DNA of 64,000 nucleotides, taken from positions 1 to 64,000 of the IMG/VR virus record IMGVR_UViG_2882253857_000001. One strand, 5' to 3'. Source of the stretch: a virus (lineage: Duplodnaviria > Caudoviricetes). Below, piece by piece: positions 10,690 to 54,183 of this stretch; the first letter of the stretch is position 1; each line of letters starts with the position of its first letter. The translations under genes and the position numbers were made by a program. The notes below the pieces were generated by a model. It was not told the DNA's origin, did not search any database, and saw only the letters and a program-made list of their open reading frames with translations.

Positions 10690-10707
10690 TCAGGAAAATT
10701 TTCCTTG
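10690..10707. repeat. Palindromic site TCAGGAAAATTTTCCTTG (parS-like copy 1)
   Basis: 2 mismatches to TCAGGAAAATTTTCCTGA; intergenic. Confidence 0.8.
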
Positions 10708-10708
10708 G

Positions 10709-10849
10709 CTATTCAAAATCAATTCCGGTGATCTCCTTGTACTGCTCCGCCGTGATCTCTCCAAACGGATTGGACTCAGTGATCACCGCACCCTTCAGGG
10801 CATCCGCTGTTACCCATTTCATCGTAAATGCTAATGTCCAAAACTTCAT
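10709..10849 (-). CDS. XkdX-family small protein (not in ORF track)
   Basis: MKFWTLAFTMKWVTADALKGAVITESNPFGEITAEQYKEITGIDFE. Confidence 0.85.
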   Translation of the reverse strand: MKFWTLAFTMKWVTADALKGAVITESNPFGEITAEQYKEITGIDFE

Positions 10850-11400
10850 GCCTGATCCGCTCCTTTTAATTTAATGACTTCAAGCTTGGTTGCCGCCAGC
10901 TCCGCACCTAAAGCACCGATAGTCTGTTGCTGCTGTATACCCTCTAGCTTGGACTGTACAAGCTGTTCTCCCATACTACCGACTAACGCCTGCTGCTGAA
11001 TGTTTTGTAGCTTCATGGCCGTCAGTTCTTCGCCTAGCAGATCGGTCGCCGTTGGCTCCTGCGGCTGCGGCTTAGTCAGCTCCTCTATTTCCTCCGCGCT
11101 CAATCCTTCCGACCAATACCCCGATGGATCGGTCTGCTCGCCCTCTTCCCTCGCTTCCCACGCCGCCAAATCAAACTGCGGCAGATAAAGCCCCTGCGGT
11201 ACCGGCACACCAACGATGTACCCCGCAATCTCTGGTTCGGTCTCTTCCTCTTCTTCGTCAACTGCCGCCTCGATATCGGTTTCCGTCTCTGGCGGATCGG
11301 CATAAAAAGGGACGACACCGGAAAAGGCATCGTCCACTAGCGTATCCTCTATATAGAGGCCGTCTGTATTTACTTTAGGTACTGCTTTCAAGTTGATCAC
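10846..11400 (-). CDS. Tail-fibre-associated protein
   Basis: VPQGLY.P.FD...W; coiled-coil C-terminus; between RBP and XkdX. Confidence 0.65.
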   Translation of the reverse strand: MINLKAVPKVNTDGLYIEDTLVDDAFSGVVPFYADPPETETDIEAAVDEEEEETEPEIAGYIVGVPVPQGLYLPQFDLAAWEAREEGEQTDPSGYWSEGLSAEEIEELTKPQPQEPTATDLLGEELTAMKLQNIQQQALVGSMGEQLVQSKLEGIQQQQTIGALGAELAATKLEVIKLKGADQA

Positions 11401-11403
11401 TCC

Positions 11404-15444: not shown

Positions 15445-15453
15445 AAATCCTCC

Positions 15454-15891: not shown

Positions 15892-15898
15892 AATAAGA

Positions 15899-16456
15899 TC
15901 ACCCTTCCATTAGGTATTCGTTCTTTATTTTGAAGCTCTGTAATGTTGTTGTTCCTATGTTGGTTAGTACAATCACCGGGCTGGCTCGTTCATCGCCGAT
16001 AGACTGCACTGAAATAACTTGTGGTGAACTAGTAATTGTCACCTCAGTGATTCTCTCATCGCTCACAGGGAACGGGTTCTCACCCATTTTGATAGGGATC
16101 GTAATATTTCCATCAAAGATCAACTTTTCAATGGCTATTGTTCCAGCATATCTTCCGATATATCGCTTTCCCGGACGATCCGAAAAGGTGAACACGATAT
16201 CCCCTTTTTTTGCATTAAAAAGAGCCGCCACTTGGGCGACTCTGTTCTGGTAATCAATTGTCGTATCGTTTGCCATGATTACACAATCAAGGTCAAATGT
16301 TCTCGGGCCGTATGCGCTGCCAAAATCTATTTCTCCATCTCGTTCAGCAAGTTCAATGCTGTTGTCCCTAGTAGGTGGCAAGGGAGGAATATTGTGCTTC
16401 TTCACACCTAAGCCGATCGATTTTAGATCAACACCGTCGGCAGTAACTGTAATCAT
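15899..16456 (-). CDS. Distal tail protein (Dit), N-terminal part
   Basis: Follows TMP; RDG..DFG..YGPR.F, F.D.P.K.Y. Confidence 0.8.
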   Translation of the reverse strand: MITVTADGVDLKSIGLGVKKHNIPPLPPTRDNSIELAERDGEIDFGSAYGPRTFDLDCVIMANDTTIDYQNRVAQVAALFNAKKGDIVFTFSDRPGKRYIGRYAGTIAIEKLIFDGNITIPIKMGENPFPVSDERITEVTITSSPQVISVQSIGDERASPVIVLTNIGTTTLQSFKIKNEYLMEG

Positions 16457-19400
16457 CCTTTACCTCCTCCCCTGGCTTGCATGCGTCTAACAAAGGAATC
16501 TCGTTCTGACCAATACGCCCTTGCCGTAGACTCATCTTCAATATAAGTATCGCCTGAATTTACTGTGAAGTAATTATGGTTTATCTGCGGATTTGAGCCT
16601 CCAGAAACAGCTGGTAGTGTAAAACTTGGCATAGTGAAGTTAAGTGACGGCATCTTGAAGTTTAAGAGCTTGAACAAGTTACTCTGTTGTTTTTCATTAA
16701 GAAATGCCTCGCCAGCATGAGCAATTACAGGGACTTCTTGCCCCCTAACTCCTTGTACCACTCCACCTGTACTGAAATGCTGAAGCTTCTTACCGGGATC
16801 TTTTTCTAATCCGTATTTCTTTCTTAATGATTCGTTTTCAGCATGAGCAGCCATTTTCTCTTCTTTCGATGCTTTCTCATTATGCCACTTATCTATGTTG
16901 TTGTTATAACGGATCAAGTCCTGTTCTTCTTCGGATAATCCGCTTTCTAAACTTCCTGATGGAGAAGGGGCAGAAAGTGAATTGATCCTGTTCATTTTAG
17001 CTTGATAGTCAGCGATAAATTGGTCGAGCTGCGCTAGGATTTCGGCATTCTTCTCGCTCTCTTTCATAATCTGTATTTGCTTAAGGTCTTCTGCCTTAAA
17101 TTCGATTTCGGAAGAGAATGTATCGAAGGCACTGGATAATTCGCGATAATGATCATTAGCGGCCTGGATTTGATCGTTATAATCCTTTTCCTTCTGCTTT
17201 TTCTCGTCTTGTAGCGCCTGCTTTTGGTCTTCAAGAGACTGCTTTGCAAGATAACGTTCATGCTCCCGCTGCATTTCCTCTATTTCCTTCTGAATCTCTT
17301 CTCTCTCTTTAATGCCATCGGGACCAACTGCTGACTGTAATTTCTCCAATCTTGCTTTCTTCTCAGCTAACTTTCGTTCATAGTCTTCTTCTACATATAT
17401 TCGACCCATAGCCTCTATCTGAGCATCGATAGCTTCGATCTTAGCATCTTGCGCAGCCAGAAACGCATCTCGTTCAGCTTCGATTGCCTTTACCGCTTCA
17501 TTTCGTACGGATTCGATTTTAGTCGTAATTGTCTTTGCGGTGACAGTGACTGATTGTTGTTCGTCCTGAAGCAGCTTCTTTCTTAGGGCATAGATCTGTT
17601 CATCTGCTTGCATTCGCTGATCGGTGCCTTCGCGATACATCTCCTGAATCTTTTCCCAAGCCTTAATCTCATCCTCTGTTGAGATTTGCTCCATCGCTTT
17701 TTGATGATTAAGGCGCTTTGTAAATTCCGAGAAGTATTCTTGCTCTACCGCCTTCTTCGCTGCGTATACTTGCTCGTCAAGCTTCATCCGCTCCTCTGTT
17801 CCCTCTTTATAACGGGCTTGAACACGCAAGAGCATCTTAAGTTCTTCTTCTGCTGATACTTCCCTTATCCCCTTCTGGTGGGAAATCCACTTCATCGAAG
17901 CATCATAGGCTTCTTTTTCTTTCTTGGCTATTTCCTCTGCAAGTTGCTTCCTCAAGGCGTATACTTTCTCATCCGCCTTAAGCCTTTGCTCAGAACCAGC
18001 CTTATACCTAGCCTGGACACGTTCCCAAGCTAGAAGTTCCTGTTGGGTATTCATGCGTCCAATAGCTTTCTGATGCTCGATATATTTTTGTGAAGCATCA
18101 AACTGTTTTTGAAGTGGATCGTCCTTCTTACTCTTGCTCTTTGACTTATCTTTTGAACCGCCTGATTTCGAGGAGCTTACACCAAAGTTTTTATCTTCAT
18201 ACATGCCTGATAGTGCCTTAATCTTCTCATCATACATATTCATTTCTTTTTCAAAGTCGTTGTAAATAGCATCGAAATCATTTGCCATGGTCTGTTTAAT
18301 GAGTTGAGAAGAATAACCTGGTACAAACATTGACATTAAATCATTGCCTGCTCCTACTGCCGCCTTGACCCCGTATAGATTTGACTTTAAGTCAGCCAGG
18401 CTTTTAATTGCCTTAGCTTCTATTCCATAAGCCTTAAGTCGTTCATCTGTGGCAGCCTTGACGTTAAATGCTGAATTCTTCTCCGCTTCAAGTTCATCAA
18501 TTGCTTTCTGTATTTTTGCTTTGCGAAGAGCATCAACAGCCCCTTCTTCAAACTTCCAACCATCAGCAGTTTTATAGATGGCATCTGCAAGTTGAGGGTA
18601 CTTGTTAATCAAATCAGCGGCATTGGCGGCATTGAGGGACTGTCCTTCAGCAAGATCTTTTGAGACAGAATTAAGCTCGCTGATCGCCTTGCTGTTCCCC
18701 TGAATCTGAGATTCAAGGTTTTCATGAGCTTTAATCAAATCGTCAGTAGATTGATATTGTTCATCCTGCGCGTCTGTAGCATCGTCTAAGCTGTCTTCGT
18801 AATCATCCATGCTGCCAGCAAGATTATCAGTGCTATCAGCAGCCGAAGCAGTCTTACCGTTAAGCATATCGAGACTGTCTTGACTGCTTTGAATTTGACT
18901 GTCTAATTGCTGCAATTTCTCACTGACATCAACTAGCTTTCGTGAGAATTCTTCGGTATTGTTGTTAGGATCGAAGTCTACATATAAATCATTTTTGAAA
19001 ATACCTTCGATACCTTTTAAGAGTCCGTGAAAATCAAAAAGACCGATTGTTCCATCGATCTTTCCTTTTAGATAATCAAGCTCTTTTTGAAGTTTTTCAC
19101 GGTCAACAACCAAATCACTAAGCCGTTTTTCTTCTATTACCTTTAATGCGTTCTTATATTCCTCAGAAAATGAAGACATCTTCTCGGCGTTAATTTCCAT
19201 CGCCTTTCCATCTTCATCCCATTGAGTTACCATTTCAGGCATGATCTTGCTTAGTTTTTCTATCACAGCAGTCAGTTCTTCTTTTGCCTTTTTGACCTCA
19301 TTACTGGATTTTGTATTGTCATCAACGATGCTCTTTAACTCTTTGTATTTCTCCGTGAGTGCATATGCATCACGTTCGTTTTGCTTAGTGGTATCAATTG

Positions 19401-21399
19401 CTTGATTCTGAGTCCCGTTGTAATAGGACCAAGCGAGAGTAACGCCGCCAATAATCGTAGCCAGTGCGGTTAGGGTCGCTCCTATTGGAGTAGCTACGAA
19501 TGCTTTTTGAGATAAATTGGCCGCATCAGTAGCCGTCTTCATCCCTAACATAGCCTTAGCTGCATTGGCAAGTCCTGTTACTAATGAAACAAGGCTATAC
19601 CCTGTAAATAGTTTTGTTCCTGTGTTAAGCGCTGTTATTGCTGCACCCAGCAAAAGAGCGCTAGTCATGGTGTTACGAATAGGATCTGGAAGGGAATTGA
19701 ATCCATCTACTAGAGTTGTTGCTGTTTGTGTTAGTGCCTTTAGGATATTTAATAATCCACTATCACCCATTGTCACAATCAATTCATCCCATGCAGCCTT
19801 GAGTTGTAACGATTGCTTTTCAAGAGTCGTCATAGCAAGGGCGTTTTCTCGTTGTGCTGATCCGAATGAGTTTTCTGATGTGACTGCTACATCCAAAGCC
19901 TTTGAGTAGTTATTCATTAGCGCGATAAATCGCGAAGCTTGGTCTCCACGAGCGACAGCTTGTGTAATTTCTGCACGCTCAACGTCAGTTAGTACGCTCC
20001 ACTTCTCTGCAATCTTGCCAAGAAGCTCAGGGAACTTCATCATTTCACCGTTAGCATGCTTCATTACGCCCACATATTTCTCAAGTTTATCAACTGCGAT
20101 ATCCCGGCTAGAGAAAGAAATGAACGATTTAATAGCATTGCCCGCAACTGATCCCGTGAATCCTGACTGGTTAAGGACTGTCAAGTAACCTATCAGAGTG
20201 TCAATATCTACCCCGGCATTTTTAGCAGCTGCGCCGACACGGTTAATCCCTTCAAGCAGCTTTTTAGATGTTGTCGGATAGTTATTAGATACCTCATTAA
20301 GCCTGTCCAGTAATCGTTCTGATTCCTCGGCTGCCATACCATAGTTAAGGACGGCTCCAGTCATCATTTCCTGCGCTTGTGCCGCGCTCTGGAATGATTG
20401 CTCTACGTTAGCTGCCATTAACGCCGTTTGGGCTAGAGATTCCGTCTGACGTTCGTCAAAACCCTGCTGAGCGATAAGAGTATATACTTCTGCTACCTCG
20501 GTTAAGGCGTAACCATACTCTTTAGCGTTAGAAATCATTGATTCTTTGACAAACTCAACGTCTGCCAAATCGCCCATGATCCGCTTGATATTTACCAGTT
20601 CGTACTCAAAATCTTTAAGTACAGAAATAGCTTCTGTTGCCCCTCGCATGACAGCATAGTACATAGTACCGGAGAGCATGTATTGAGATGACTTTTCCAG
20701 TACACTGGTCGGACTGAGCATTTTATTCATGCGCGCAGCGTGCCGCTCTTCTTCCATTTCAAGCTTACGGTTTCCATTGCTAATGAGTTGGAATTCTCGA
20801 TCAATCCGCGCCTGAATCAGATTCTCTTGTGCGCCAGCTCCCATTGTCTTTTGTTGCAATAGAGCCATCTTTTGTTGGTGTTGCTGCTCCTGCCGCTCGA
20901 TCTTTGCTTGACCTGATTTTAATGCCTGTTGCTCTTTTGTAAGCTTTGATTCGATAACTCGAACTGCTGCATCATTCTTGGTTTGTAGATTAAGCATGCG
21001 TTGCTGATGTTCGCGTTCTTGCTGTTCTATGCCTGCTTGCCTCTTTGCTACCAGAGCCTGTTGCGCCTGAAGCTTCGACTCAACAAGATTGTTCGTCTGG
21101 TCAAGCTGCTGCTTCTTGGCATTTAATAACTCAGCTTGAGCGGTTCTTTGTTTTACCAGAGCTTCTGATTCGGCAAGAATCTTTCTACGCCGTTCTTCAG
21201 AAGACAAGGCTATCTTATCCGCTGCACTCGCTAAAGCGGTGTAGTTCTTTTGAGTAATCGCAAGTTCTGAATTAAGAACCTTGAACGACTCTGCATTACC
21301 GCGCGCGCCCTCATCGATCGTCTTAAAAGATTGCAACATTTTAGATGTATCAAGGTTAATCCTGGCCCCGACAACATCTTTATTTAATTCATCCGCCAC
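16453..21399 (-). CDS. Tape measure protein
   Basis: 1648 aa, helical, TP901-like core, GG.V.G..G..VP..AH.GE near C-terminus. Confidence 0.95.
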   Translation of the reverse strand: MADELNKDVVGARINLDTSKMLQSFKTIDEGARGNAESFKVLNSELAITQKNYTALASAADKIALSSEERRRKILAESEALVKQRTAQAELLNAKKQQLDQTNNLVESKLQAQQALVAKRQAGIEQQEREHQQRMLNLQTKNDAAVRVIESKLTKEQQALKSGQAKIERQEQQHQQKMALLQQKTMGAGAQENLIQARIDREFQLISNGNRKLEMEEERHAARMNKMLSPTSVLEKSSQYMLSGTMYYAVMRGATEAISVLKDFEYELVNIKRIMGDLADVEFVKESMISNAKEYGYALTEVAEVYTLIAQQGFDERQTESLAQTALMAANVEQSFQSAAQAQEMMTGAVLNYGMAAEESERLLDRLNEVSNNYPTTSKKLLEGINRVGAAAKNAGVDIDTLIGYLTVLNQSGFTGSVAGNAIKSFISFSSRDIAVDKLEKYVGVMKHANGEMMKFPELLGKIAEKWSVLTDVERAEITQAVARGDQASRFIALMNNYSKALDVAVTSENSFGSAQRENALAMTTLEKQSLQLKAAWDELIVTMGDSGLLNILKALTQTATTLVDGFNSLPDPIRNTMTSALLLGAAITALNTGTKLFTGYSLVSLVTGLANAAKAMLGMKTATDAANLSQKAFVATPIGATLTALATIIGGVTLAWSYYNGTQNQAIDTTKQNERDAYALTEKYKELKSIVDDNTKSSNEVKKAKEELTAVIEKLSKIMPEMVTQWDEDGKAMEINAEKMSSFSEEYKNALKVIEEKRLSDLVVDREKLQKELDYLKGKIDGTIGLFDFHGLLKGIEGIFKNDLYVDFDPNNNTEEFSRKLVDVSEKLQQLDSQIQSSQDSLDMLNGKTASAADSTDNLAGSMDDYEDSLDDATDAQDEQYQSTDDLIKAHENLESQIQGNSKAISELNSVSKDLAEGQSLNAANAADLINKYPQLADAIYKTADGWKFEEGAVDALRKAKIQKAIDELEAEKNSAFNVKAATDERLKAYGIEAKAIKSLADLKSNLYGVKAAVGAGNDLMSMFVPGYSSQLIKQTMANDFDAIYNDFEKEMNMYDEKIKALSGMYEDKNFGVSSSKSGGSKDKSKSKSKKDDPLQKQFDASQKYIEHQKAIGRMNTQQELLAWERVQARYKAGSEQRLKADEKVYALRKQLAEEIAKKEKEAYDASMKWISHQKGIREVSAEEELKMLLRVQARYKEGTEERMKLDEQVYAAKKAVEQEYFSEFTKRLNHQKAMEQISTEDEIKAWEKIQEMYREGTDQRMQADEQIYALRKKLLQDEQQSVTVTAKTITTKIESVRNEAVKAIEAERDAFLAAQDAKIEAIDAQIEAMGRIYVEEDYERKLAEKKARLEKLQSAVGPDGIKEREEIQKEIEEMQREHERYLAKQSLEDQKQALQDEKKQKEKDYNDQIQAANDHYRELSSAFDTFSSEIEFKAEDLKQIQIMKESEKNAEILAQLDQFIADYQAKMNRINSLSAPSPSGSLESGLSEEEQDLIRYNNNIDKWHNEKASKEEKMAAHAENESLRKKYGLEKDPGKKLQHFSTGGVVQGVRGQEVPVIAHAGEAFLNEKQQSNLFKLLNFKMPSLNFTMPSFTLPAVSGGSNPQINHNYFTVNSGDTYIEDESTARAYWSERDSFVRRMQARGGGKG

Positions 21400-21415: not shown

Positions 21416-21433
21416 TAAGGAAAATTTTCCTGA
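21416..21433. repeat. Palindromic site TAAGGAAAATTTTCCTGA (parS-like copy 2)
   Basis: 1 mismatch; intergenic upstream of TMP. Confidence 0.8.
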
Positions 21434-29290: not shown

Positions 29291-29326
29291 CTCATCCCCT
29301 CCTTCCCAGAAACATAAAAAAGAGGC

Positions 29327-29342
29327 TCAGGAAAATTCCTGA
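29327..29342. repeat. Shortened palindrome TCAGGAAAATTCCTGA inside a terminator hairpin
   Basis: 2-bp deletion variant of the dispersed site; hairpin followed by T run on minus. Confidence 0.5.
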
Positions 29343-29407
29343 CCTCAATTAGTCATTCTTATCTGTATAAAATATATCATTTGATTATTGCTAGATTACT
29401 ACGGATT

Positions 29408-29769: not shown

Positions 29770-31191
29770 TTAGGATGTTATCGAACCAAAAGCGAATCCA
29801 GTATCAGTTTTACGATCATTATAAATAGCGTATCGCTTTGAGTCTTGTGTATGATTATTCTTGTCTTCTGGAGTTTCAGAGTGCTGCCCATCTCTATTTT
29901 CTTTCCATTTATAGTTTTCAGTTTCTTTGATCTCATTTTTACATTCGCGATTAACGTACAAATTTGGTCTGCCGGTTCCTGATTTTACCTTATACAGACT
30001 TGCAACTTCCTTGATACCGGGGCCTATAGCATTATCCGCTTCCTTAACTGGTAAATCATACTTTCTATACGTACTAATGTATTCCGGTTCTGAAGGATCG
30101 GCCCATATTTCATCAAAATGATATTTGGAATCAAACTCCTTGTAACGCTTAACCAAACAATCTTCTAGTTTTCCGTTATCATCTACAACCAGGACATTTA
30201 TATGCTGGACATATGATTCTTCTACAATGTAATAATCTTCATCAGTACAGCCTATAACAAGCAACACGGCAGGATCGTTCCATCCATGGTCCATCCCTCC
30301 GATAAATCTATTGAATATAATGTCCTTCTGTTCTCCGTTAGCATAGGTTACTTCATACAAGTTCATTCCGGCATCAATGCATTTCATAGATACTAAATGG
30401 ACATCACGCCTAAATTCATCATAAACTTGACCATGAAACACGTTAAACTTCGCGTATATTTCGCGCTGAACATACCTATCTGGATAGGTTTCAATCATTC
30501 GTTGAATGTTTCTTTGTAACTCTGGGATCGGGTTATCAATAGAGGTCCAGTAGAAGTTTCGCCACTCTGGATCATTTTGATATTGTTCATCTTCTAATCC
30601 AGCATCGATCCATTGCCCCTTAAGAACGATTTCTTCTGCGAACCAGTTAATACCCTCCGGAGTAGTAGTCCATACGCTCCAACCGCCTTTATCTGCCAAT
30701 GCATAGGCTAAATAACCAGACCAAGTTTCTGCTTTCATCTTGGACGCTTCATCCAACCAAACGCCATCTAACCCCTTACCTACGAGCGATTTTGGTTTAT
30801 CTGCTGATTTAAATTGAATAAGGACCCATCCTTTTAACCATACACGGTTTTTGGACAGGTCCCATGATTCAATCATTTCTTCGGGTAATACATCTGATAA
30901 TTCTTCTTGTTGGATTTCTGACATAGCATATGTTGGAGAAATACACCAATATTCAAGTCGAGGTTTAGGCTTCTTCATCTTCTTCAGGTTTTTAGGTGGT
31001 CGATAGGGAAGTCCTTTTCCGTGTTCAATATCATCAAGAATATTATCGAAGAACTTGCGCGCCCCAACATTCGTTTTTCCTCCGCGTCGCCCACAATTCA
31101 GAACGTTATTACGCGCTCTGCTTTCCATAACCTCAATTTGCTTGTCGTGAGGTTTCCAATCGGCAAAGGGATCAACTTCAACAAGCGTCAT
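29770..31191 (-). CDS. terL: Terminase large subunit
   Basis: GRRGGKT, WLDEA, TTTPEG, GMDHGWNDP, NHTQDS.RY. Confidence 0.95.
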   Translation of the reverse strand: MTLVEVDPFADWKPHDKQIEVMESRARNNVLNCGRRGGKTNVGARKFFDNILDDIEHGKGLPYRPPKNLKKMKKPKPRLEYWCISPTYAMSEIQQEELSDVLPEEMIESWDLSKNRVWLKGWVLIQFKSADKPKSLVGKGLDGVWLDEASKMKAETWSGYLAYALADKGGWSVWTTTPEGINWFAEEIVLKGQWIDAGLEDEQYQNDPEWRNFYWTSIDNPIPELQRNIQRMIETYPDRYVQREIYAKFNVFHGQVYDEFRRDVHLVSMKCIDAGMNLYEVTYANGEQKDIIFNRFIGGMDHGWNDPAVLLVIGCTDEDYYIVEESYVQHINVLVVDDNGKLEDCLVKRYKEFDSKYHFDEIWADPSEPEYISTYRKYDLPVKEADNAIGPGIKEVASLYKVKSGTGRPNLYVNRECKNEIKETENYKWKENRDGQHSETPEDKNNHTQDSKRYAIYNDRKTDTGFAFGSITS

Positions 31192-31982
31192 TTAGACCAC
31201 CTTCTTACAACAACCTCTGTAGGTTTATCTTCTTCATCCTCTAATTTGGAACGCTCCAATTCAAATTTTTGTTGATCTTTCTCATCAAGAATTCGAAGCG
31301 TCTGGCGTTGAGCCTTCTGAATTTTTTCGAATGAATTCACAACATTGACCAACTTAGCATCATTCAAAGCATCTACGGTTTCCACGATGATCTTTTCATC
31401 AAATTCACCCGGACCGTATCCGGTACGTAATTTTTCAACTACCTTATAAAATTCGCGGTCGTCGTTGATTGCATCCTCAACGATTTTGAGAAGCTTGTCA
31501 GAGATGCGTAAATGTCGTGCTGTTGCTCGCGCAATGTCGTTACTCAATAGATGTGTTGTAATTTCAGCACTTTTTTCCTTCACACCCTCTGTATGCTTTC
31601 TTCGCTTCTCCACCCAATTATGTTCTGCTGAATATTTCATTATAGAACTAGAACTGATTCCGTATTTTTTTGCAAGCTGCTCCAATGTCCAACCTTTTTT
31701 TCTGATATCAGTGACATAATCATTTTCAATTTCCGCCCAAGATATTCCTTCTAGCTCCGTTCCGTTTGATTCGGAACGTTCCGTATTTATTGGAGCGTTC
31801 TTTTCTTCAGATTGGAACGTTCCGTTCCGTTGGTCATCCCATTTATCTTTAGCCTTCCATCCTCTAATCGTTCCATCTGCAACGCCTAGCTGTGTGGCGA
31901 TGTCAATTAGACTGATTTCGCCATTAGAGGATAAGTATATTTCTTTTGCTTTATCTCTATTAGGATCTCTTTGACGGCCCAT
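31188..31982 (-). CDS. terS: Terminase small subunit
   Basis: R.P.R.KA..IY...L.DIA..LGV...TIR.WK..DKW; upstream of terL. Confidence 0.85.
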   Translation of the reverse strand: MGRQRDPNRDKAKEIYLSSNGEISLIDIATQLGVADGTIRGWKAKDKWDDQRNGTFQSEEKNAPINTERSESNGTELEGISWAEIENDYVTDIRKKGWTLEQLAKKYGISSSSIMKYSAEHNWVEKRRKHTEGVKEKSAEITTHLLSNDIARATARHLRISDKLLKIVEDAINDDREFYKVVEKLRTGYGPGEFDEKIIVETVDALNDAKLVNVVNSFEKIQKAQRQTLRILDEKDQQKFELERSKLEDEEDKPTEVVVRRWSK

Positions 31983-32082: not shown

Positions 32083-32100
32083 TAAGGTAAATTTTCCTGA
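32083..32100. repeat. Palindromic site TAAGGTAAATTTTCCTGA (parS-like copy 3)
   Basis: 2 mismatches; intergenic upstream of terS. Confidence 0.75.
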
Positions 32101-32959: not shown

Positions 32960-33598
32960 TTAGCTCGCTCCGGGCAATCGTAATCCTATTTCTCCTTCTT
33001 CGCTGCGCCCATTTCCATAGGTGATTATCACACAATCCAAAGTGCGATTGATCTTAAGGCTGTTTGCTAAGTTAGAAATAGCTTTGCGGCGCTTGTCTGC
33101 GAATGTTGTCGCGGAGATAGGATAGATATCTTTCCTGTACCCTTTGCTCAAGTATTCCTGAGCTTTGAGATACTTCATGCCATCCAGAAATAGAAGCTTT
33201 GCAATCAATCCTTCATGCGGATCTCTCAGGTTATTGATTGCGAATTTAATATTATTTGAAATGAAGAGATAGTATTTATAATTGGTATGCCGCTTGTCTT
33301 TGAGTACCACGGAATTTGCCGTTACGTCAGCGGTCAGTTCTTGGCCTGTTTCCCTTTTTCCGGCTGTCCCCTCAGCCGTGAGTAGCTGGTATGCATCCAA
33401 GCCGTTCTCGATCTGGCTCAAAGCGAATTCATAGTTCTTGATGATGTCGATCATGTCAGTGTACTTGCCTAAGAGCCATTTAGTTTTACGAACATCATCG
33501 GCATTTATATCATCGAAGAATGTTATTTGAATGATTTTATCTGTATCTAATACATCATCGTTAATTTCACTTGATTGCACTTCTTGATGACTGTTCAT
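32960..33598 (-). CDS. Putative late transcriptional activator (ArpU/RinA-like)
   Basis: AI..L.D..E..I....FLDG...T....R.KAI; last gene before packaging region. Confidence 0.7.
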   Translation of the reverse strand: MNSHQEVQSSEINDDVLDTDKIIQITFFDDINADDVRKTKWLLGKYTDMIDIIKNYEFALSQIENGLDAYQLLTAEGTAGKRETGQELTADVTANSVVLKDKRHTNYKYYLFISNNIKFAINNLRDPHEGLIAKLLFLDGMKYLKAQEYLSKGYRKDIYPISATTFADKRRKAISNLANSLKINRTLDCVIITYGNGRSEEGEIGLRLPGAS

Positions 33599-33600
33599 GT

Positions 33601-33837
33601 CTACTCCTCCCCTGTAAACCAATCAAATCCTTCTGTCGGATCAGGGAGATTTAACTCTGCATAGTGTGTAACGTTATTGATTAAAGTAATGCTGTCCTTT
33701 TGCTCCCAATATAATTGTGCGTGTTTAACATCAAATAAAAGTATGGCACTAAATACGCTACCATCTATACGATGTACTAAAAATGCTTTGCCTACTTCTG
33801 GCGGATTGTTTTGATTATATATTTTCCAATTAATCAT
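33601..33837 (-). CDS. DUF551-like small phage protein
   Basis: I.W.....P...VTHYA..N.P. Confidence 0.55.
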   Translation of the reverse strand: MINWKIYNQNNPPEVGKAFLVHRIDGSVFSAILLFDVKHAQLYWEQKDSITLINNVTHYAELNLPDPTEGFDWFTGEE

Positions 33838-39839: not shown

Positions 39840-40166
39840 TCAGTAATGTGATCTTTCATACGCCTGTTTTGCTTCTTCGATCGTTTTGAAATCGAACTCT
39901 CGATATACAGAATGAACAATGCTTGCTATCTGTTTGTCTGTGTAACTAATATTTTTTGCTCCAAGAATGACATATCCTAGACAAGCATTGTTACTCCATT
40001 CCACGCTAGAAAAAAGCTGAGCATCCTTATATCCGGCCTGATAAGCCTTGTTGAACTTTTGTTCAACTCTATCGAGGATCTTTATCTGCTCCGTATTCAT
40101 CCCATCAGGGAATAATTCATCTTCCAATTCCATCCTTAATACCACTGCTAAGTTATAATCTTGCAT
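39840..40166 (-). CDS. Hypothetical phage protein
   Basis: WSNNACLGY.I...FD.KT.EEA. Confidence 0.65.
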   Translation of the reverse strand: MQDYNLAVVLRMELEDELFPDGMNTEQIKILDRVEQKFNKAYQAGYKDAQLFSSVEWSNNACLGYVILGAKNISYTDKQIASIVHSVYREFDFKTIEEAKQAYERSHY

Positions 40167-40184: not shown

Positions 40185-40202
40185 TCAGGAAAACTTTCCT
40201 GA
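40185..40202. repeat. Palindromic site TCAGGAAAACTTTCCTGA (parS-like copy 4)
   Basis: 1 mismatch; intergenic. Confidence 0.8.
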
Positions 40203-43813: not shown

Positions 43814-43816
43814 AAC

Positions 43817-44591: not shown

Positions 44592-44595
44592 GATG

Positions 44596-46751: not shown

Positions 46752-46757
46752 AGATCA

Positions 46758-47846
46758 TCACCCCTTGCGATTAGCCTTTAGCTGCTCTAGCATCCGCTGC
46801 ACATCATCTTCACTGTATTCGCTAGATTCGATTCGCTCAGAAGCGGCAGAAATCAAATCGCTTTCCGGTTTGTCATCTTCGGATGGATTGACTGCATGAA
46901 GTGAGTAAATCACTGGAGCGCAATAACTTAGGGAATGAACTTCATCACGCTTATGCTTTGGTTTGAACTTGTCAAAAGCTTGGTCAATGCCATCTAAAGT
47001 TGTTTGAAGCGGAACTCCGTCTTTAATCAACTCATCAATCACTTGTTCATCGGATTTCGTAATTTCTAATCCCTTACCACGTCTCCGAAGATATTTATCA
47101 GCTGTAGCCTGGCGATAATCGATATCCGAAGATGATATTTTGTCCTGAATAGAGTCGGTACCTGTTTCAGAAGTGACAGGATTCCATTCCTGTCGGGTAA
47201 ACGGCATCCCCTCATCCTTCGTTTTCGATTCGCCGTCAGGCGTATTAAAACAACAACAATTGTCTTTAATATTGTCTTTAAACATGTCTTTAGACACCCT
47301 CTCCGCCTTAGAGCCGCAAGGGATTGAGTCACCTTCGACTTCATGTTTTGTGAAGTTTTCACCCTCTGAAACTTCATGTTTTGTGAAGTCGTACTTCATG
47401 TTTTGTGAAGTTTTATCATTCTCCCCTTGGTCTAATGGCTTGCTTTGATCATCCGAAAACTTCATGTTTTGTGAAGTTTTTCTTTTGAGATTTTGATGGA
47501 TTAGATTATCAAATCTGTCCGAATCCCACCCCATAACCGGGCTAATTTGCCAAAGGTCATAATCCTTATTAATGGAGAATAGTTTTTCGCTATGTTGCCA
47601 AGTGATTACCTTGGCATTTTCAAGGAACAAGAGTTCTTTCTTGATGTGTGTTGCTGGTATGCCGCAGATTTCAAAATCCTTTAGCTTTGGGATATAAGCA
47701 TCCTTTAGATTGCAGCCATACGATAATCTCCAGATAAATAGAAGAATATCTTTCTGCCTCTTGGTGAAATTACGCCTGATTAACTCATTCCAAAGCTCAT
47801 TTGCCAGTTTCACATACCCGTTCTCAGGTTGAGGATTCTTTGCCAC
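46758..47846 (-). CDS. Replication initiator (lambda O-like N-terminus)
   Basis: PQ.ENGY...ANE...R..YG; internal iterons. Confidence 0.9.
   Translation of the reverse strand: MAKNPQPENGYVKLANELWNELIRRNFTKRQKDILLFIWRLSYGCNLKDAYIPKLKDFEICGIPATHIKKELLFLENAKVITWQHSEKLFSINKDYDLWQISPVMGWDSDRFDNLIHQNLKRKTSQNMKFSDDQSKPLDQGENDKTSQNMKYDFTKHEVSEGENFTKHEVEGDSIPCGSKAERVSKDMFKDNIKDNCCCFNTPDGESKTKDEGMPFTRQEWNPVTSETGTDSIQDKISSSDIDYRQATADKYLRRRGKGLEITKSDEQVIDELIKDGVPLQTTLDGIDQAFDKFKPKHKRDEVHSLSYCAPVIYSLHAVNPSEDDKPESDLISAASERIESSEYSEDDVQRMLEQLKANRKG
47338..47477. repeat. Origin iterons, 4 x ACTTCATGTTTTGTGAAGT
   Basis: Copies at 47338, 47371, 47393 and 47459, each with ACTTCA/TGAAGT dyad. Confidence 0.9.
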
Positions 47847-47851
47847 TCACC

Positions 47852-48184
47852 TCACCCCATCGATTCAAGCACATACCGATTACCACCGATCTCTATCGTT
47901 TTAAATGTGCCATCATCAAGAACTTCTTTTACATGTATGGATACTCTCCGCCTTATCTTAACCTCCATATAGGCCGGTTCGTCGGGAGGTACAATTTCGA
48001 TAGCCCTACCCGAACCGTGAATACGGCGAATCAATCCCTTTTGCTCTAGTCGCTCTATGTGACCAGCAACCGTTGATGATGACTTAAGACCAACGCCAAT
48101 ACCTATTTCTCGGAATGTAGGCGAATAGCCATTTTCTTGTTGATATTGAGCGATAAAATCCAGTATTCTTTGTTGCGTTTTCAT
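47852..48184 (-). CDS. LexA DNA-binding-domain protein
   Basis: [20 protein letters not shown]...LE.KG.I.R...RAIEI. Confidence 0.85.
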
Positions 48185-48198
48185 ATAATCATCACCCG

Positions 48199-48603: not shown

Positions 48604-48617
48604 ATCCCTTCAATGCG

Positions 48618-49055: not shown

Positions 49056-49069
49056 TTAAGTCACCTTCC

Positions 49070-50104
49070 TCATTTGATCCCCATGAGCTGGGCCAACGTT
49101 TTACATAACGGCCACTTATTCTTGGATGTAATGGATGCCGGCATTTGAAAGCTATATTCAGCAGCAAGTTGGAGAATCAAAGAGTTATCCGCCGCCATTA
49201 GCTCTTCAAGAGTTTTTGGACGATCAATTGCTATTTCATGTTGATTATTATGGTCCTCTGATTCAACTTCATTGTCGTCATCAGACCCTAATTGATCCTC
49301 TAACTTAAACAGCCATCCTTTAATTTCATATGCTTCTGCTTTTGTCAGATTTGCTGGATCATTGGTGATAGCACCCTCAGACCTAGTCTTATACCACTCT
49401 CGGAGCTTAATGTCCGAATTAAACCCCTTGACTCTAGCAAGATCCATTAGTTGTAGGTATCCTTTAGAGTCTATGACCTTATCGATCTTGCGGGGTCGCA
49501 AATCATCTGTAGGATCAGCACCAGTTACTAGATCGTCATCCAACGTTCCTAGGTATGCATCAGCTCCGACACCAAGGAATGAGGTTGCCCGTTTGATACC
49601 TTTAGTAAGCATCCCTTTACGCGCAGCTCCTTTTTCCCTGAAATGCTCATGATCAGTAGGTATTGGCGGTAAACTGTGAACTGTGATCCATTCCCATTGG
49701 TTCGTTTCCTCATTTAAAACTCGGTATCCAATAAGAAGCTCAATCTCAGCTGAATACTGGTGCTTTGTATATCCTCCGCCTGTTGTCAGGCTACCATCAT
49801 ATGTTTCGTTTTGGATTGCCCACGTCCAATTTGTCGGCCCGAAAACCCAATTCATACGGTCTACATGAGCTTGATAGGAGTAACCCGTTGTATCATACCC
49901 TTTTTTTGTCTCGCTCCCTTTGGACTCTTGAATAGCATCCTCATCCAGCGGTAAACGGAGAAGAGGAAGAAGCTTATTAACATCATCTGGCGTGAATGGA
50001 GATTTAATTGGAATCTCTACTCCAAACTCTTCAGCAATCTGTTTAAGATCTCCGAAGGTTTTAGGCGCTTTTGGAAGTTGCCTTTTCGTTTCGGTTGTGG
50101 TCAT
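49070..50104 (-). CDS. Rad52/Sak-like single-strand annealing protein
   Basis: GY..Q...DR.N.VFG..NW...KG..T..IKRA...LGVG. Confidence 0.75.
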   Translation of the reverse strand: MTTTETKRQLPKAPKTFGDLKQIAEEFGVEIPIKSPFTPDDVNKLLPLLRLPLDEDAIQESKGSETKKGYDTTGYSYQAHVDRMNWVFGPTNWTWAIQNETYDGSLTTGGGYTKHQYSAEIELLIGYRVLNEETNQWEWITVHSLPPIPTDHEHFREKGAARKGMLTKGIKRATSFLGVGADAYLGTLDDDLVTGADPTDDLRPRKIDKVIDSKGYLQLMDLARVKGFNSDIKLREWYKTRSEGAITNDPANLTKAEAYEIKGWLFKLEDQLGSDDDNEVESEDHNNQHEIAIDRPKTLEELMAADNSLILQLAAEYSFQMPASITSKNKWPLCKTLAQLMGIK

Positions 50105-50448
50105 TTTCTCGCCTTCCTTTCAAAGCTCACATCATCCAGCCACAAACTAGCAAGATACGCACACCCGGCCATCTTATGCTCATGTTTAGGTTCTCTCGAT
50201 GCCAATATTGCTCCGATGTGATAGAGAGCTTTCTGAGGGTTTATGCCGTCCTTTCGTTCGATCTCAAGATGGTCAACCCCGTCATAAAACCAGCTTGATA
50301 TAAATTCATTCCATTTAGTGCGACGATTCATATCCTTAAACTCATCAGGGATATCCTCATATTTCGGCAACAGCTTGTTGACATCACCGCCGTAAACAAA
50401 TTCAGTAGCTGTAACTTCTTGTGGTATCAACTCAGGCATTGACAACAC
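50101..50448 (-). CDS. Hypothetical phage protein
   Basis: S.EPKHEHK..GCAYL motif. Confidence 0.65.
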   Translation of the reverse strand: MLSMPELIPQEVTATEFVYGGDVNKLLPKYEDIPDEFKDMNRRTKWNEFISSWFYDGVDHLEIERKDGINPQKALYHIGAILASREPKHEHKMAGCAYLASLWLDDVSFERKARK

Positions 50449-51976
50449 CTTCCTTCACCTCAAGCTCAGTAAATGGGATCATGCGGGCTATGAATGTCTG
50501 TGTATGTTGTTCGGGTATTTCCTCTATTGACTCAGCCCAATCTATAAATACCGGGAAATCAGCTTTAGAAAATGTTCGGAACAATTTTGAAAATTCAAGG
50601 AAGCAAAGCATTTCTTCTGATGTGGACAATACCCTAATCGGTTTACCATCGAATTCAGCCTTAAATGCAGGTTTGATCTCTCCAGTGCTTCTTACGACTT
50701 CGAATAACCTAATCGAAGCGCGGTTAAGATGTTTTTGAACATCCTCCATCTGCATTTCGCAACGCTTGATATTAAATGCCTTAGCCGCCTTTATACGAGC
50801 CTCAGCTTTTTCTATAGCTTGAGCTATTCTGGTCTTGTCATCACGGACAGAATTCTGCCGCCCCTTCGCCTTCTTACGGTTTTCGTGAAGAACTTTAACC
50901 TCTAAGTTGTGCTTCTGAGTAACTTCAAGATTAGATTCTAGTTGCTTCAACTCCGCGCGAAGTTCGGCAAGCGAAGCGTCGTTGGCAGATTTAAATTCGT
51001 CTGCCGCTTTCTGATCCGCCGTCTGGATAGATTCAATTTCAGAAGCAATCTTCTTACCCTCGGCTTGAATATCAACCATTTTCTTAGTGATCTCTTCGTT
51101 TTTCTTGGCCTGCTCTGCATTTAAGTTGATCTCGTGACCGCAATTTTCGCAGGTTATGAAATGATCTTCTTCAAATACCAAGCCGGATTGAAGGGCTTTA
51201 TACTCTCCTAGCAAGGACTGACGCTTATTCTGAAGATCTGAAATATTCGTAGGAACAGGCTTTAGTCCTTCAATTGCCTTAATGGCTTCTTTTAAACCGT
51301 TAATCTCTGTCATATCCACTGGAATCTCATCAGGTATTTCAGCTGATAGCGCTTCCCTTATCTCTTCCTCTTTACCTTCAAGCCTGATTAATTCTTCCTT
51401 CAATTGCTTTAGTTCCTCTGATTCCTTAGAGATAAAAACCCTTGGATCGATCAAAGGAACGCCTTTCAACACTTCAATTGAATCTGAATTCTCTTCCTCC
51501 AATTCAGCGTATACATCTTTATCCCGTGGCAAAGGAATTAATGAAACAAACTCAGTCTCCATTTCTTTATCAGACATTGTTAGAAGAAATTGGGGCAAGA
51601 ACGAGATCAAGAATCTTCGCTTGTTGCCAATAATTTGATCGATTTGATCTTGAGAGCCTTGCAATCGGTTAATGTATATCCTGGTATCCATCTTTGATTT
51701 CATCCTCGTTACATGGCGTTCAATCTCGTATATTTTCCCGTCGGATTCAAGTTCGATGGAAATCACCATTTCATTTCCCTTGTCGTTCATAAGTCGGTCA
51801 GCGCAACGTTCCTTACCGTACTTATCAACCCCAGCTAATCCAAATGATATAGCCTCCATGATGGATGACTTTCCGCGTCTATTTCCGCCTTCTATCTCAT
51901 TGATCATTCCAAATTCGAAATGACGATACTCTTGATAACCGCGGAAGCCCTTGACTCCCAAACTCCTGATGATCAT
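50432..51976 (-). CDS. SMC/Rad50-like ATPase with zinc hook
   Basis: GGNRRGKSS, coiled coils around CENC, LSTSE, FID..ES. Confidence 0.85.
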   Translation of the reverse strand: MIIRSLGVKGFRGYQEYRHFEFGMINEIEGGNRRGKSSIMEAISFGLAGVDKYGKERCADRLMNDKGNEMVISIELESDGKIYEIERHVTRMKSKMDTRIYINRLQGSQDQIDQIIGNKRRFLISFLPQFLLTMSDKEMETEFVSLIPLPRDKDVYAELEEENSDSIEVLKGVPLIDPRVFISKESEELKQLKEELIRLEGKEEEIREALSAEIPDEIPVDMTEINGLKEAIKAIEGLKPVPTNISDLQNKRQSLLGEYKALQSGLVFEEDHFITCENCGHEINLNAEQAKKNEEITKKMVDIQAEGKKIASEIESIQTADQKAADEFKSANDASLAELRAELKQLESNLEVTQKHNLEVKVLHENRKKAKGRQNSVRDDKTRIAQAIEKAEARIKAAKAFNIKRCEMQMEDVQKHLNRASIRLFEVVRSTGEIKPAFKAEFDGKPIRVLSTSEEMLCFLEFSKLFRTFSKADFPVFIDWAESIEEIPEQHTQTFIARMIPFTELEVKEGVVNA

Positions 51977-52055
51977 TCACATTTCCTCCAAATCATGTTA
52001 TTATGGAGGCGAAAACATGTTTTAGCGGACGATGTTTTCGCCAAAGTGTTATTTT

Positions 52056-52256
52056 TCATTGATGATCACGTTCTCCAGCGTGGTCATTTTTCGTTTCAAT
52101 AACAGCAAGTGCGGTCTCAAGGTCATCTATAACCACTTGAAAATCTTGCTTAAAGAACCATCCTGCCGACTCCATCGCAGTTCCTATAGAAACACCCGTT
52201 GTCTCATTTTGAAGCTTCCTGAGCTTATCTAGGGCTTTCTGTACGTGGTATTTCAT
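52056..52256 (-). CDS. Hypothetical phage protein
   Basis: ORF with RBS. Confidence 0.5.
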   Translation of the reverse strand: MKYHVQKALDKLRKLQNETTGVSIGTAMESAGWFFKQDFQVVIDDLETALAVIETKNDHAGERDHQ

Positions 52257-52432
52257 CTTTACATCTCACCCCTATGCAGAATGATTAATTAGTTCAAACT
52301 CATGCTGAAGATCGTCTATTTCCTTATCAAGCCAATCCTCGCCAGCGTCCAGAACTACTCCGCTATTTCTAAAGCGAATAAGGTTTTGGAGATGCCGCCA
52401 TGCCTTCCAACCTTCCAACAGCCTGTTCTCAC

Positions 52433-52648
52433 TCATGCTGTACCTCCCGCTGGATATTGTTTTTTGATATTACGAGCATAGAAGCTTCCTACTGAGTCAG
52501 CGTTAATCAAGTCGTTGTAGACTTCTTTCGGTACTTGGTGATGCTCATAAACCTTCTGACTGCTCTTAAACTGGATATAAAACACTTGCTTAGACTCATC
52601 GTAACCAACAGCAGCAACATTTGAAGATGCAACAGGTATAAGTTCCAT
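52433..52648 (-). CDS. KTSC domain protein
   Basis: V.SSN..AVGYD...F....Y....VP..VY..L..A.S.GSFY..NIK. Confidence 0.9.
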   Translation of the reverse strand: MELIPVASSNVAAVGYDESKQVFYIQFKSSQKVYEHHQVPKEVYNDLINADSVGSFYARNIKKQYPAGGTA

Positions 52649-52649
52649 A

Positions 52650-53072
52650 TTAGATATAATCCTCCGGTCTAAAATTTTTAACGAAATCAATAGAATCATC
52701 AAAGTCTATTCTGCGAACATGGCTATATTTAGCCACTTCAAAGCGTTCCTTAAGCTTGCTCCAAATCATTCTGCGGTAACGTCCTACCATATCCTTAAAG
52801 CTATCGTCAGCCTCTCTGTACCGATGTTTTGTAAGCTCATTAGACTTGATCCGTACAGCTTGCTGTAGTTGATAGCACTCAGCATCTGTCAAAGTAACGC
52901 TATCCCTAACCTCCTGAACCATGATCTGAACTTCCTCAACCTTTTCTGTCATTTCAACATGCATTTGCTTCATTCCATCAAATAGCATCCTAATAGCAGC
53001 TCCTTGCTGCTCAGTTAGCTGTAACTGTCTTTCTATCACCGGGAAGTAATCGGCTTGCTCAATCATTGCCAT
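52650..53072 (-). CDS. ORF6C-domain (antirepressor-associated) protein
   Basis: IW..LK..F.V..Y....R.DF...I.FV..F.P. Confidence 0.75.
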   Translation of the reverse strand: MAMIEQADYFPVIERQLQLTEQQGAAIRMLFDGMKQMHVEMTEKVEEVQIMVQEVRDSVTLTDAECYQLQQAVRIKSNELTKHRYREADDSFKDMVGRYRRMIWSKLKERFEVAKYSHVRRIDFDDSIDFVKNFRPEDYI

Positions 53073-54183
53073 GATTATTTACCACCTTTCTGCCGTTTAC
53101 GGCTGGTCTTAATTGTTCGATGAATGACTCTAACATATCTAAACTCTCTGAGAGGCGCTTCTTTTCGCTGCTGCTGGCTCCAGAGACTGCTCCAAGCATA
53201 AGCGTTGTGATCCCTACCTTTTGGAGAAATTGCTTGATATGAATACTGACTTGAATCGTGTTACTGTCAGCTTCAAAGCGTAATTTCTTCATACGAGCTA
53301 TTTCCTGCTGTTCGTCGAAATCATCAGGCTGCTGCAACTTCAAGGCTTCGATCTCTTCTTTGGCCCGTTGATAACCTGACTTCAGTTGTTCTACCTTAAC
53401 TCGCTCAGATTCTATATCTTCCTTGAGTTTGTTCTTCCAGTATTCATCACGCTGTTTAAGTTGAGCCTCCGCTTCCTTCTCTTTTTGCTTGATAAACACC
53501 GTTGTTTCTTCCTCATGACGTTCAACCGCTGCCGCAATTGCATCATCAAGTTGATCTGCAGGAATGGCGTTCTTGTACTGTCGTTGAAGCTCTTGCTTCT
53601 CCTGCTCCGCCCGTTCAGCCCGTTCCTCAGCTTCCCTAAGCCTATTCCTAGTTTCGATAAAGGCTTTATGAGTGCTGATTAAGCCTGCATCAAGCTGCTG
53701 AATAATTTCAGGAGTAGCGTTTTCTGCGATGAATTTCGCTTTGTCATATTGCTTCCCAGAGCCGAATCCAGCTTGTTCCGCAACAATATCTCTTACTTGA
53801 CCGGACTGCTCAGGAAAATTTTCCTTGCCTCCAGACATCCGTTCCTTGGCTTTGATACGTTCCACATCTTCAAGCCGTTTAGCCCATTCGATCCGTTCCG
53901 AGAAGGTGAATTCTTTACGGTGTTCGTTCTCACTGATCTCCAATCGGAGTTGATGCTCGTAATCTGTAATCTCCATTATCCGAGCAAGAACTTGTTTTCT
54001 GCCAAGGAACTCATGTGCCCGTAACCGCCGTTCTCCAGCGACTAATTGATAATCAGGTGTAACTACAATTGGATTTATAAGTCCGTTTTGTTCTATATCA
54101 TGAGCCAACTCTTCTATGCCACCGAAATCTTTCCGAATGCGGTCACTGACTTTGATTTTTTCGATATCAATTAGCACTTTCAT
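53059..54183 (-). CDS. ParB-like CTPase/HTH protein without ParA
   Basis: I...GLINPI.V, AGERRLRA, EISENEHR, HTH RDIVAEQAGFGSG..Y, coiled-coil C-terminus. Confidence 0.9.
   Translation of the reverse strand: MKVLIDIEKIKVSDRIRKDFGGIEELAHDIEQNGLINPIVVTPDYQLVAGERRLRAHEFLGRKQVLARIMEITDYEHQLRLEISENEHRKEFTFSERIEWAKRLEDVERIKAKERMSGGKENFPEQSGQVRDIVAEQAGFGSGKQYDKAKFIAENATPEIIQQLDAGLISTHKAFIETRNRLREAEERAERAEQEKQELQRQYKNAIPADQLDDAIAAAVERHEEETTVFIKQKEKEAEAQLKQRDEYWKNKLKEDIESERVKVEQLKSGYQRAKEEIEALKLQQPDDFDEQQEIARMKKLRFEADSNTIQVSIHIKQFLQKVGITTLMLGAVSGASSSEKKRLSESLDMLESFIEQLRPAVNGRKVVNNHGND
53810..53827. repeat. Palindromic site TCAGGAAAATTTTCCTTG (parS-like copy 5), inside parB
   Basis: Encodes part of GKENFPE just before the HTH; identical to copy 1. 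Confidence 0.8.

Follow-up and report, generated by a model that had tools for sequence, protein, structure and literature searches.

Within the 64,000-nucleotide stretch of viral DNA analysed here (the window; positions 1 to 64,000 of IMG/VR record IMGVR_UViG_2882253857_000001), a temperate siphophage-type prophage carries five copies of a 22-bp palindrome, one of which lies inside the gene of an orphan ParB-like protein. Judging from sequence conservation and from analogy with characterised ParB-type clamps, we consider it fairly probable that these palindromes are the cognate docking sites (parS- or OB-like) of the prophage's own early ParB/Noc/KorB-type protein, and that they serve genome-wide control of transcription. 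The predicted cognate binding rests on the confinement of the motif to prophages that bear the gene, on frozen synonymous sites in the intragenic copy, on a palindrome in the same loop-coding stretch across the protein family, and on the co-variation of that palindrome with the helix-turn-helix (HTH) of the protein. These lines of evidence are new to this analysis, as are the dispersal of the site in relatives and the independent variation of its two halves. A broader proposal, tentative and a little short of evenly balanced, is that ParB-like clamps encoded by early genes of phages form a very large family in which each gene contains, in its loop-coding stretch, the loading site of its own product, such that gene and site would travel and diverge together as a self-contained specificity cassette, and that the Paenibacillus lineage has copied the site five- to eightfold for virus-wide control in the style of KorB or BisD, or for coating. 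If this is true, the DNA targets of thousands of orphan phage ParBs could be read directly from their genes.

A palindrome dispersed over the prophage

The palindrome, G(G/C)T(C/A)AGGAAAnnTTTCCT, is present in five copies in the window. A scan with the 18-mer TCAGGAAAATTTTCCTGA at two mismatches or fewer returned exactly five matches, at 10690, 21416, 32083, 40185 and 53810, with none in the shuffled sequences (mean of 100 shuffles 0.00), and at three mismatches or fewer the same five sites were found (shuffle mean 0.06). Consecutive copies are separated by 10726, 10667, 8102 and 13625 nucleotides. The 14-nt core at two mismatches or fewer gave 6 matches versus 0.70 expected, the extra one being a weak site at 155-168 outside the prophage, and neither the 18-mer nor the core matched in the second phage-like element past 57.2 kb. 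Alignment of the copies lengthens the palindrome to 22 bp, and 33 sites from six related genomes yield the half-site consensus G-(G/C)-T-(C/A)-A-G-G-A-A-A.

Four copies are located in short intergenic gaps between minus-strand genes. The first (10690..10707), in the tail-fibre/lysis end, is placed between gene 10153-10671 and a small XkdX-family open reading frame (ORF) of 46 aa (10709-10849), which is its upstream neighbour rather than gene 10846-11400. The second (21416..21433) stands directly before the tape-measure gene (16453-21399) and the third (32083..32100) some 100 nt ahead of the small terminase gene (31188-31982), each after a terminator-like hairpin, while the fourth (40185..40202), at the end of the replication/early module, precedes the start codon of gene 39840-40166 by 16 nt. 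Between the end of the site and the Shine-Dalgarno sequence of the next gene there are 3-5 nt at 10690, 21416 and 40185. The fifth copy (53810..53827) is intragenic and encodes residues G119-E125 (GKENFPE) of the 374-aa ParB-like protein, in the loop that connects the N-domain with the HTH. In addition, a variant with a centre 2 bp shorter is present upstream of the portal gene (29316..29346, minus strand). The sequence-only reading had described the five copies with their positions and gaps, the intergenic location of four and the coding of GKENFPE just before the HTH by the fifth, the shorter variant at 29327 and the lack of a full site in the second element, and each of these descriptions was reproduced.

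Dispersal and confinement in Paenibacillus relatives

The ParB-like gene of the window shows 100% identity to Paenibacillus aceti L14, and its close relatives were collected from 16 genome loci and 18 viral loci, most of them 67-100% identical (47-48% for L017 and L018). An intragenic copy of AGGAAANNTTTCCT with at most one mismatch is present at 29 of these 34 loci, and at 22 a further copy follows within 10 kb downstream. The provirus records G001-G005 (those behind L019, L023, L024, L026 and L027) hold 5-6 copies each, 4.8-20.8 kb apart, compared with 0-3 when five words of equal composition were used as controls, and a 63%-identical relative (G010) holds 8 copies. In the window as in G001-G005, the putative operators are scattered over the element, as is typical of a KorB-like system.

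Five related Paenibacillus genomes of 5-7.1 Mb were scanned in full. Exact matches number 37, of which 26 are located within about 55 kb downstream of six ParB-like genes (6/6, 10/13, 2/3, 6/12 and 2/3 per genome), whereas the reversed control word occurs 0-1 times per genome. Each site cluster in these genomes goes with exactly one ParB-like gene. A collection-wide scan with the 14-mer gave scattered matches in unrelated genomes, among the matches listed, none of which came from P. aceti. P. ottowii carries two ParB-bearing prophage copies (G021:C21 96850-129464 and 156590-189204) with identical site spacing, about 59.7 kb apart, which represent either a tandem duplication or a double lysogen. 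The ParB-like match of P. macerans (G020:C2:283208-284329) contains one TAA in the aligned range, which may be the gene's own stop.

Throughout the Paenibacillus clade the sites are found at the heads of modules, not always the same ones, namely at the end of the replication block, before the small terminase gene (terS) or the late-regulator-like gene, before the portal gene, before the major tail or tape-measure gene and near the tail fibres or lysis genes. In all of G001-G005 the replication module has a copy at its end, flanked by the 38988-like and 43817-like genes, and a copy precedes terS in G004 and the late-regulator-like gene in G002. The copy before the tape-measure gene of the window recurs in G004, while in G001-G003 and G005 it is positioned just upstream of a major-tail-like gene instead; relatives also have a copy in the tail-fibre/lysis end. 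Some of the relatives' sites reside inside other genes, where they are read in the same frame as K/Q-E-x-F/I-P-E. Over eleven site sets the largest gap is about 21 kb and most are 17 kb or less, so that nearly the whole 50-60 kb genome is within about 10 kb of a site. In G001-G005 the site at the end of the replication module (G001:57276, G002:45720, G003:47676, G004:60548 and G005:11308) has a conserved stretch less than 45 nt past it, which contains two repeats of the ACTGGAA type and which is missing at the 40185 site of the window.

The location of the sites at module boundaries, with an exact placement that varies between relatives, is also what would be seen if the repeats were short linker sequences that promote recombinational shuffling among related phages. 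We regard this as extremely improbable, since 22 bp is short for homologous exchange and linkers leave unexplained why the repeats are palindromic, why the intragenic copy is frozen and why distant phages have single copies embedded in the gene itself (see below).

Selection on the intragenic copy

A codon alignment of 34 distinct genes of the Paenibacillus clade comprises 244 conserved degenerate codon columns, whose synonymous entropy averages 1.22 bits. Synonymous variation is absent from just three of the 244, and two of these belong to the motif, E121 (GAA 32/32) and N122 (AAT 30/30). Further motif codons are near-fixed, namely K120 (AAG 25/25), P124 (CCT 30/31) and E125 (GAG 16/16). The freezing of synonymous sites in the intragenic copy indicates that the nucleic acid itself is under selection.

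Such selection could act on an RNA or DNA hairpin, i.e. on terminators, processing sites or mRNA stabilisers unlinked to the ParB-like protein. Indeed, on the coding strand the 29327 variant folds into a strong hairpin (-14.6 kcal/mol, z -4.1) with a T-run after it and is a terminator by these features, the copies at 40185 and 53810 fold moderately well (z -2.9 and -2.4, respectively), and terminator-like hairpins precede those at 21416 and 32083. Relatives likewise have five full-length sites within terminator hairpins; in G002 and G003 the site sits inside an AGAAGG...CCTTCT hairpin with a T-run directly before the portal gene, and in G001, G004 and G005 a similar site-in-hairpin occupies the interval from terS to the head genes, in which the portal was not mapped. 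However, the RNA folding of the 10690, 21416 and 32083 copies is no better than that of shuffles, a stable stem combined with a T-run is found at the 29327 variant only, and the five full copies have no T-run on the coding strand. Furthermore, mirrored variable positions of the arms agree no more than by chance over the 33 sites (12 vs 16.1, 14 vs 18 and 14 vs 12.7), such that there is no compensatory pairing. Since the two halves vary independently and three copies fold poorly, it appears that two half-sites are read by a dimer rather than paired in a stem; the pattern fits dimer-read half-sites and argues against a hairpin. An Rfam scan of the window matched no family, and a hairpin leaves unexplained both the location of the palindrome in the loop-coding stretch and the co-variation with the HTH. 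We therefore hold the hairpin to be very improbable as a general explanation. Promoter and terminator scans of 40-58 kb gave counts not above those of shuffles, while terminator-like sites in 3-20 kb exceed shuffles (22 vs 12.2), none of them accounting for the palindromes. The structure in the 5' mRNA of Caulobacter parB (PMC13371061) was also considered and is unrelated to the palindrome.

An orphan ParB-like protein

The ParB-like gene (53059..54183, minus strand, 374 aa) is the third in the early lytic operon, behind the cro-like and HTH_17 genes. Its product matches Pfam ParB_N (PF02195; 4.9e-11), the 'ParB-like partition' proteins of phrog_12047 (8.1e-64) and the sequences of ParB, Spo0J and Noc chains in the PDB, with the GERRLRA and ENEHR boxes aligned. 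Residues invariant in 73 homologues include G50, R52, R53, E82, E85, N86 and R89. The N-terminal nucleotide-binding boxes of ParB clamps, GxxR and ENxxR, are thus present, and the GERRLRA and ENxxR motifs that the sequence-only reading had noted are retained. An AlphaFold2 (AF2) model built with these homologues (predicted local distance difference test, pLDDT, 90.3) has five parts, in which a ParB N-domain (1-117) is joined by a loop (118-129) to an HTH domain (130-165), and a long coiled coil (171-284) and a helical end (291-363) come after. The HTH domain is central and follows the N-domain, as in ParB clamps, and the intervening loop, which is the stretch encoded by the palindrome, has lower pLDDT. 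The best Foldseek matches are Noc-NBS (7ol9), ParB-CDP/CTPgS (7bnk/7bnr) and KorB (8qa8/8qa9), in alignments that span the N-domain and the DNA-binding domain (180-230 columns, E 1e-8 to 1e-6), while no match to ParB C-domains was obtained for the C-terminal half with Foldseek. By sequence and model, an orphan ParB/Noc/KorB-type protein is therefore supported for 53059-54183. The protein does not qualify for a canonical ParABS system, since the ORFs scanned (29, 36 and 32 queries, partly overlapping) included no ParA-type family, in agreement with the earlier report of no ParA in the window, and since the ParA-contact motif, defined as (L/F/I)G(K/R)G(L/F/I) in the available part of PMC12704722, is absent from its sequence.

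The palindrome across the wider family

The family to which the protein belongs comprises 190 clusters with a cut-off of E<=1e-30 and 2793 with one of E<=1e-10, with members in phages of Firmicutes, Actinobacteria and Gammaproteobacteria. A position just after cro, among the early genes, is shared by the window, the Staphylococcus phages 85 and EW and Mycobacterium phage phiGD20-1. A profile of the family was used to fetch 80 viral loci, down to about 35% identity. In 27 of 44 distinct distant genes, the best palindrome found anywhere in the gene has its centre 28-48 codons past ENxxR, within a stretch of 20 codons that makes up 6% of the gene (binomial P 3e-22, the sequences not being independent). 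The loop palindromes reach 26-28 bp and differ in sequence from gene to gene. The best palindrome of the gene is placed in this stretch as well in all four of the other cultured phages examined, namely Pseudomonas phiAH14a, Mycobacterium phiGD20-1, Clostridium c-st and Vibrio eugene. Staphylococcus phage EW has a single-copy palindrome in the same loop-coding stretch and phage 85 an imperfect one; a screen of both for repeated perfect palindromes found none. In one viral contig (L099:7410-8209) the palindrome marks the exact point at which the ParB-like gene is broken in two. Its central A/T run is shorter by one base, which puts the N-domain and the HTH part in different frames; a frameshift, slippage or a sequencing error could account for this.

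If the palindrome is read by the protein that it helps to encode, its sequence should follow that of the HTH. Pairwise distances between 35 distinct genes were compared by Spearman correlation and Mantel test. The half-site distance correlates with the distance of the HTH, taken as the 40 residues after the loop (rho 0.30, Mantel P 0.0002), while there is no correlation with the N-domain core (0.07, P 0.24) or with the 30 residues just before the loop (0.12, P 0.11). The partial correlations of site and HTH that control for the N-domain core or the upstream helix stay at 0.29-0.31 (P 0.001 or less), whereas the reverse partials vanish. As the palindrome is located between both flanks, linkage should affect the two alike, and this one-sided result therefore speaks for a site that the HTH recognises. 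That homologues should have a palindrome of their own just before the HTH, co-varying with it, had been set beforehand as a test by the sequence-only reading, and this is what was found (27/44 genes, rho 0.30). Its link between the palindrome and the ParB-like gene is supported by these two results together with the frozen synonymous sites and the prophage confinement.

Another reader of the sites might be the ORF6C protein encoded next to the ParB-like gene, the late-regulator-like protein of 32960-33622, the protein with a LexA DNA-binding domain (47852-48184) or a host factor, with the copy in the ParB-like gene merely tolerated by the loop. The loop is unstructured and variable, the in-frame sites inside other genes of relatives (K/Q-E-x-F/I-P-E) show such tolerance, and ORF6C co-occurs with the ParB-like gene. 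However, phages of unrelated hosts share little other than the ParB-like gene and still keep the loop palindrome, site divergence follows the HTH of the ParB-like protein, ORF6C is missing from 18 of 30 distant neighbours, and the motif is rare elsewhere in host genomes. A different reader is thus improbable, and recognition by the ParB-like protein itself is preferred.

By contrast, dispersal did not hold as a trait of the family, for the complete genomes of distant homologues have the one intragenic site only. G007-G009 have one copy each and G006 one exact copy plus a one-mismatch word. One copy each is also found in G011-G015 (four of these five records are rated 100% complete), in three further partial records and in phiAH14a, eugene and phiGD20-1, while c-st (186 kb) has one copy and two A+T-rich words with 2 mismatches. 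No extra copies were found in the flanks of 22 distinct distant loci. As the palindrome is single-copy outside the Paenibacillus clade, its dispersal appears to be specific to this lineage. The many tiled sites of the clade versus the one site of other homologues provide a natural contrast for the value of dispersal, and the family rule gives a predicted DNA target for each member, which makes the binding question directly testable.

Possible function of the probable docking sites

In the proposed mechanism, a dimer of the ParB-like protein would dock at a site, close around the DNA with a nucleotide (cytidine triphosphate, CTP, by analogy) and slide for kilobases. The ancestral arrangement would be one intragenic site about 1 kb from the immunity switch, where the self-embedded site would load clamps since the gene is early, just after cro. 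The Paenibacillus lineage would then have multiplied the site to 5-8 copies. By analogy, the most likely output would be control of phage transcription over the whole genome, exerted together with the neighbouring ORF6C protein.

The ORF6C-domain protein (140 aa; 52650..53072, minus strand; Pfam ORF6C 4.5e-11) is encoded by a gene whose start overlaps the end of the ParB-like gene, and it also matches 'Anti-repressor' PHROGs. The neighbour is present in G001-G005 as well, the next ORF is a clear homologue of the window protein at 15 of 16 close loci, and at distant loci it is ORF6C in 12 of 30 distinct cases (8 above the Pfam cut-off). Other distant neighbours are DUF6551, another ParB-like fold (3/30), and Bro-N + ANT (1/30), and the neighbour in c-st is annotated as a putative antirepressor. 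This recurrence by synteny at distant loci and in Paenibacillus relatives bears out the protein as a partner candidate. Its AF2 model is all-helical (pLDDT 88), and a search of this fold against the PDB gave no match at E<=0.001.

The main rival to a regulatory output is a physical one, in which the ParB-like protein binds the sites as well, but coats, compacts or clusters the replicating phage chromosome or hides it from host defences. Even spacing, which had been the basis for this suggestion, is seen in the window (coefficient of variation 0.18, P 0.009 vs uniform random placement), with P 0.065 when the 29327 variant is added and P 0.003-0.19 in nine site sets of relatives. The gaps, mostly 17 kb or less and at most about 21 kb, are within the spreading ranges reported for ParB and BisD (about 50 kb for BisD in the part of PMC12409273 available), the sites are off promoters, and no ParA is seen among the ORFs scanned. 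However, the evenness is descriptive only, since the genomes are related and the module heads at which the sites are located are themselves regularly spaced, which may explain it. Moreover, genomes of 40-185 kb have a single site in most of the family, so that coating cannot be its basic role, and no defence or anti-defence context was seen. A physical output is therefore rather unlikely.

Several observations weigh against docking sites that serve transcription control. None of the sites overlaps a recognisable sigma-70 promoter in the promoter scans, so that a classical operator role is not evident, and tiling is not needed for the basic function, given that a single site is what most of the family has. 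At rho 0.30 the co-variation is modest, the sequences compared lack phylogenetic independence, and an identical HTH stretch in phiAH14a and L116 goes with sites that differ in their outer positions. The C-terminal half of the ParB-like protein is, in the AF2 model, a long coiled coil with a helical end, unlike the dimerisation domain of ParB. As to confinement, 11 of the 37 exact matches are scattered singles outside ParB prophages, and the result covers five related Paenibacillus genomes other than the window's own host, P. aceti. Judged by its sequence, the pre-portal element doubles as an intrinsic terminator, the window copy having lost 2 bp at its centre. Finally, the nucleotide bound is ATP or GTP rather than CTP in some ParB folds, according to the available text of PMC12704722.

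Layout of the prophage and its surroundings

A single siphophage-type prophage extends from about 5.4 kb (endolysin) to 57.2 kb (integrase), with nearly all genes on the minus strand. The early genes are ordered cI/M78 and cro, HTH_17, the ParB-like gene, the ORF6C gene and KTSC, followed by a recombination and replication block (AAA_23, SSB, RepO, DnaC-like, DnaN and SNF2) and, after small genes, by the late genes for terminase, portal, head, tail, tape measure, tail fibres and lysis. An AAA_23/SMC_N-type ATPase is encoded at 50432-51976, three genes past the ParB-like gene; it is unlikely as a partner because G001-G005 have no homologue. The RepO-like gene (46758-47846) contains four copies of an approximately 20-bp iteron (ACTTCATGTTTTGTGAAGT type) at 47336-47484, 22-66 bp apart, which probably constitute the phage replication origin in a lambda-like layout. 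Given the position of these iterons, an origin of replication at the palindromes was rejected. On the minus strand, 41183-41155 is a sigma-70 promoter of perfect consensus (TTGACA, 17 nt, TATAAT), about 1 kb upstream of the 40185 site along transcription, which may be a middle promoter.

The prophage is of the integrating type, with its integrase at 55899-57200. Just past this gene, a tRNA-Val gene (57358-57431) is found within the 5' end of the ORF of a second integrase (57251-58486), and beyond it follows the second phage-like element, with a Big_2 protein and an SPP1-type portal. This suggests tandem elements at one tRNA-Val site. A search for an attachment-site direct repeat of at least 18 nt found none, and a DNA search of the early region against phage records gave no match.

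Comparison with known systems

Orphan ParB folds are frequent on prophages and the class has been assigned no function, as described in the available part of PMC12704722, and no characterised phage carries ParB alone according to the corresponding part of PMC10286716. A literature search found no publication on the family, the self-embedded palindrome or the tiled sites; supplements of the cited papers might list members.

Single inverted repeats that serve a ParB-family protein are scattered over the genome of phage N15, where they are bound by SopB. N15 has SopA and lives as a linear plasmid-prophage, whereas the prophage described here integrates (integrase 55899-57200), and no ParA was seen in it. 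The sites of ParB/Spo0J and Noc are palindromes of the 16-bp class, and those of Noc are dispersed, with no known role for a ParA. The Bacillus systems ParB/Spo0J-parS and Noc-NBS share the fold and the boxes of the prophage protein; they differ in the sequence of the site, and the prophage protein has a coiled-coil C-terminus, lacks the ParA-binding motif and is encoded in a phage early operon. A site within the gene has a precedent in B. subtilis, where parS-359 lies within parB (PMC4442127, in the part available).

BisD of ICEclc is likewise an orphan ParB-like clamp of an integrated mobile element, with inverted-repeat loading sites inside genes, and in the accessible portion of its report it spreads along the direction of transcription with the partner BisC and has an extra C-terminal domain that is also needed for clamp formation (PMC12409273). 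By contrast, the bisS sites described there are in inrR and ssb rather than in bisD, and two functional sites compare with five palindrome copies here (PMC12409273). No sequence relation was seen between the C-terminal parts or the partners of the two systems, for which no dedicated test was made.

KorB of RK2 is a ParB-type protein of the control operon of a mobile element of about 60 kb, and its palindromic sites are mapped throughout the plasmid. In the part of PMC13768133 available, the KorB clamp slides from distal sites, and small partners encoded nearby, KorA and TrbA, lock it. The two systems differ in that KorB also serves partition with IncC, a ParA, whereas no ParA was seen in the prophage; in that the OB sites relate to promoters (PMC13768133), which is not seen for the prophage sites; and in that the candidate partner in the prophage is an ORF6C-domain protein with no likeness to KorA. 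Furthermore, the element here is a temperate siphophage, and one of its sites is inside the gene itself. It is the analogy to KorB with KorA or TrbA on RK2, and to BisD with BisC on ICEclc, that favours a regulatory output of the prophage protein together with its ORF6C neighbour.

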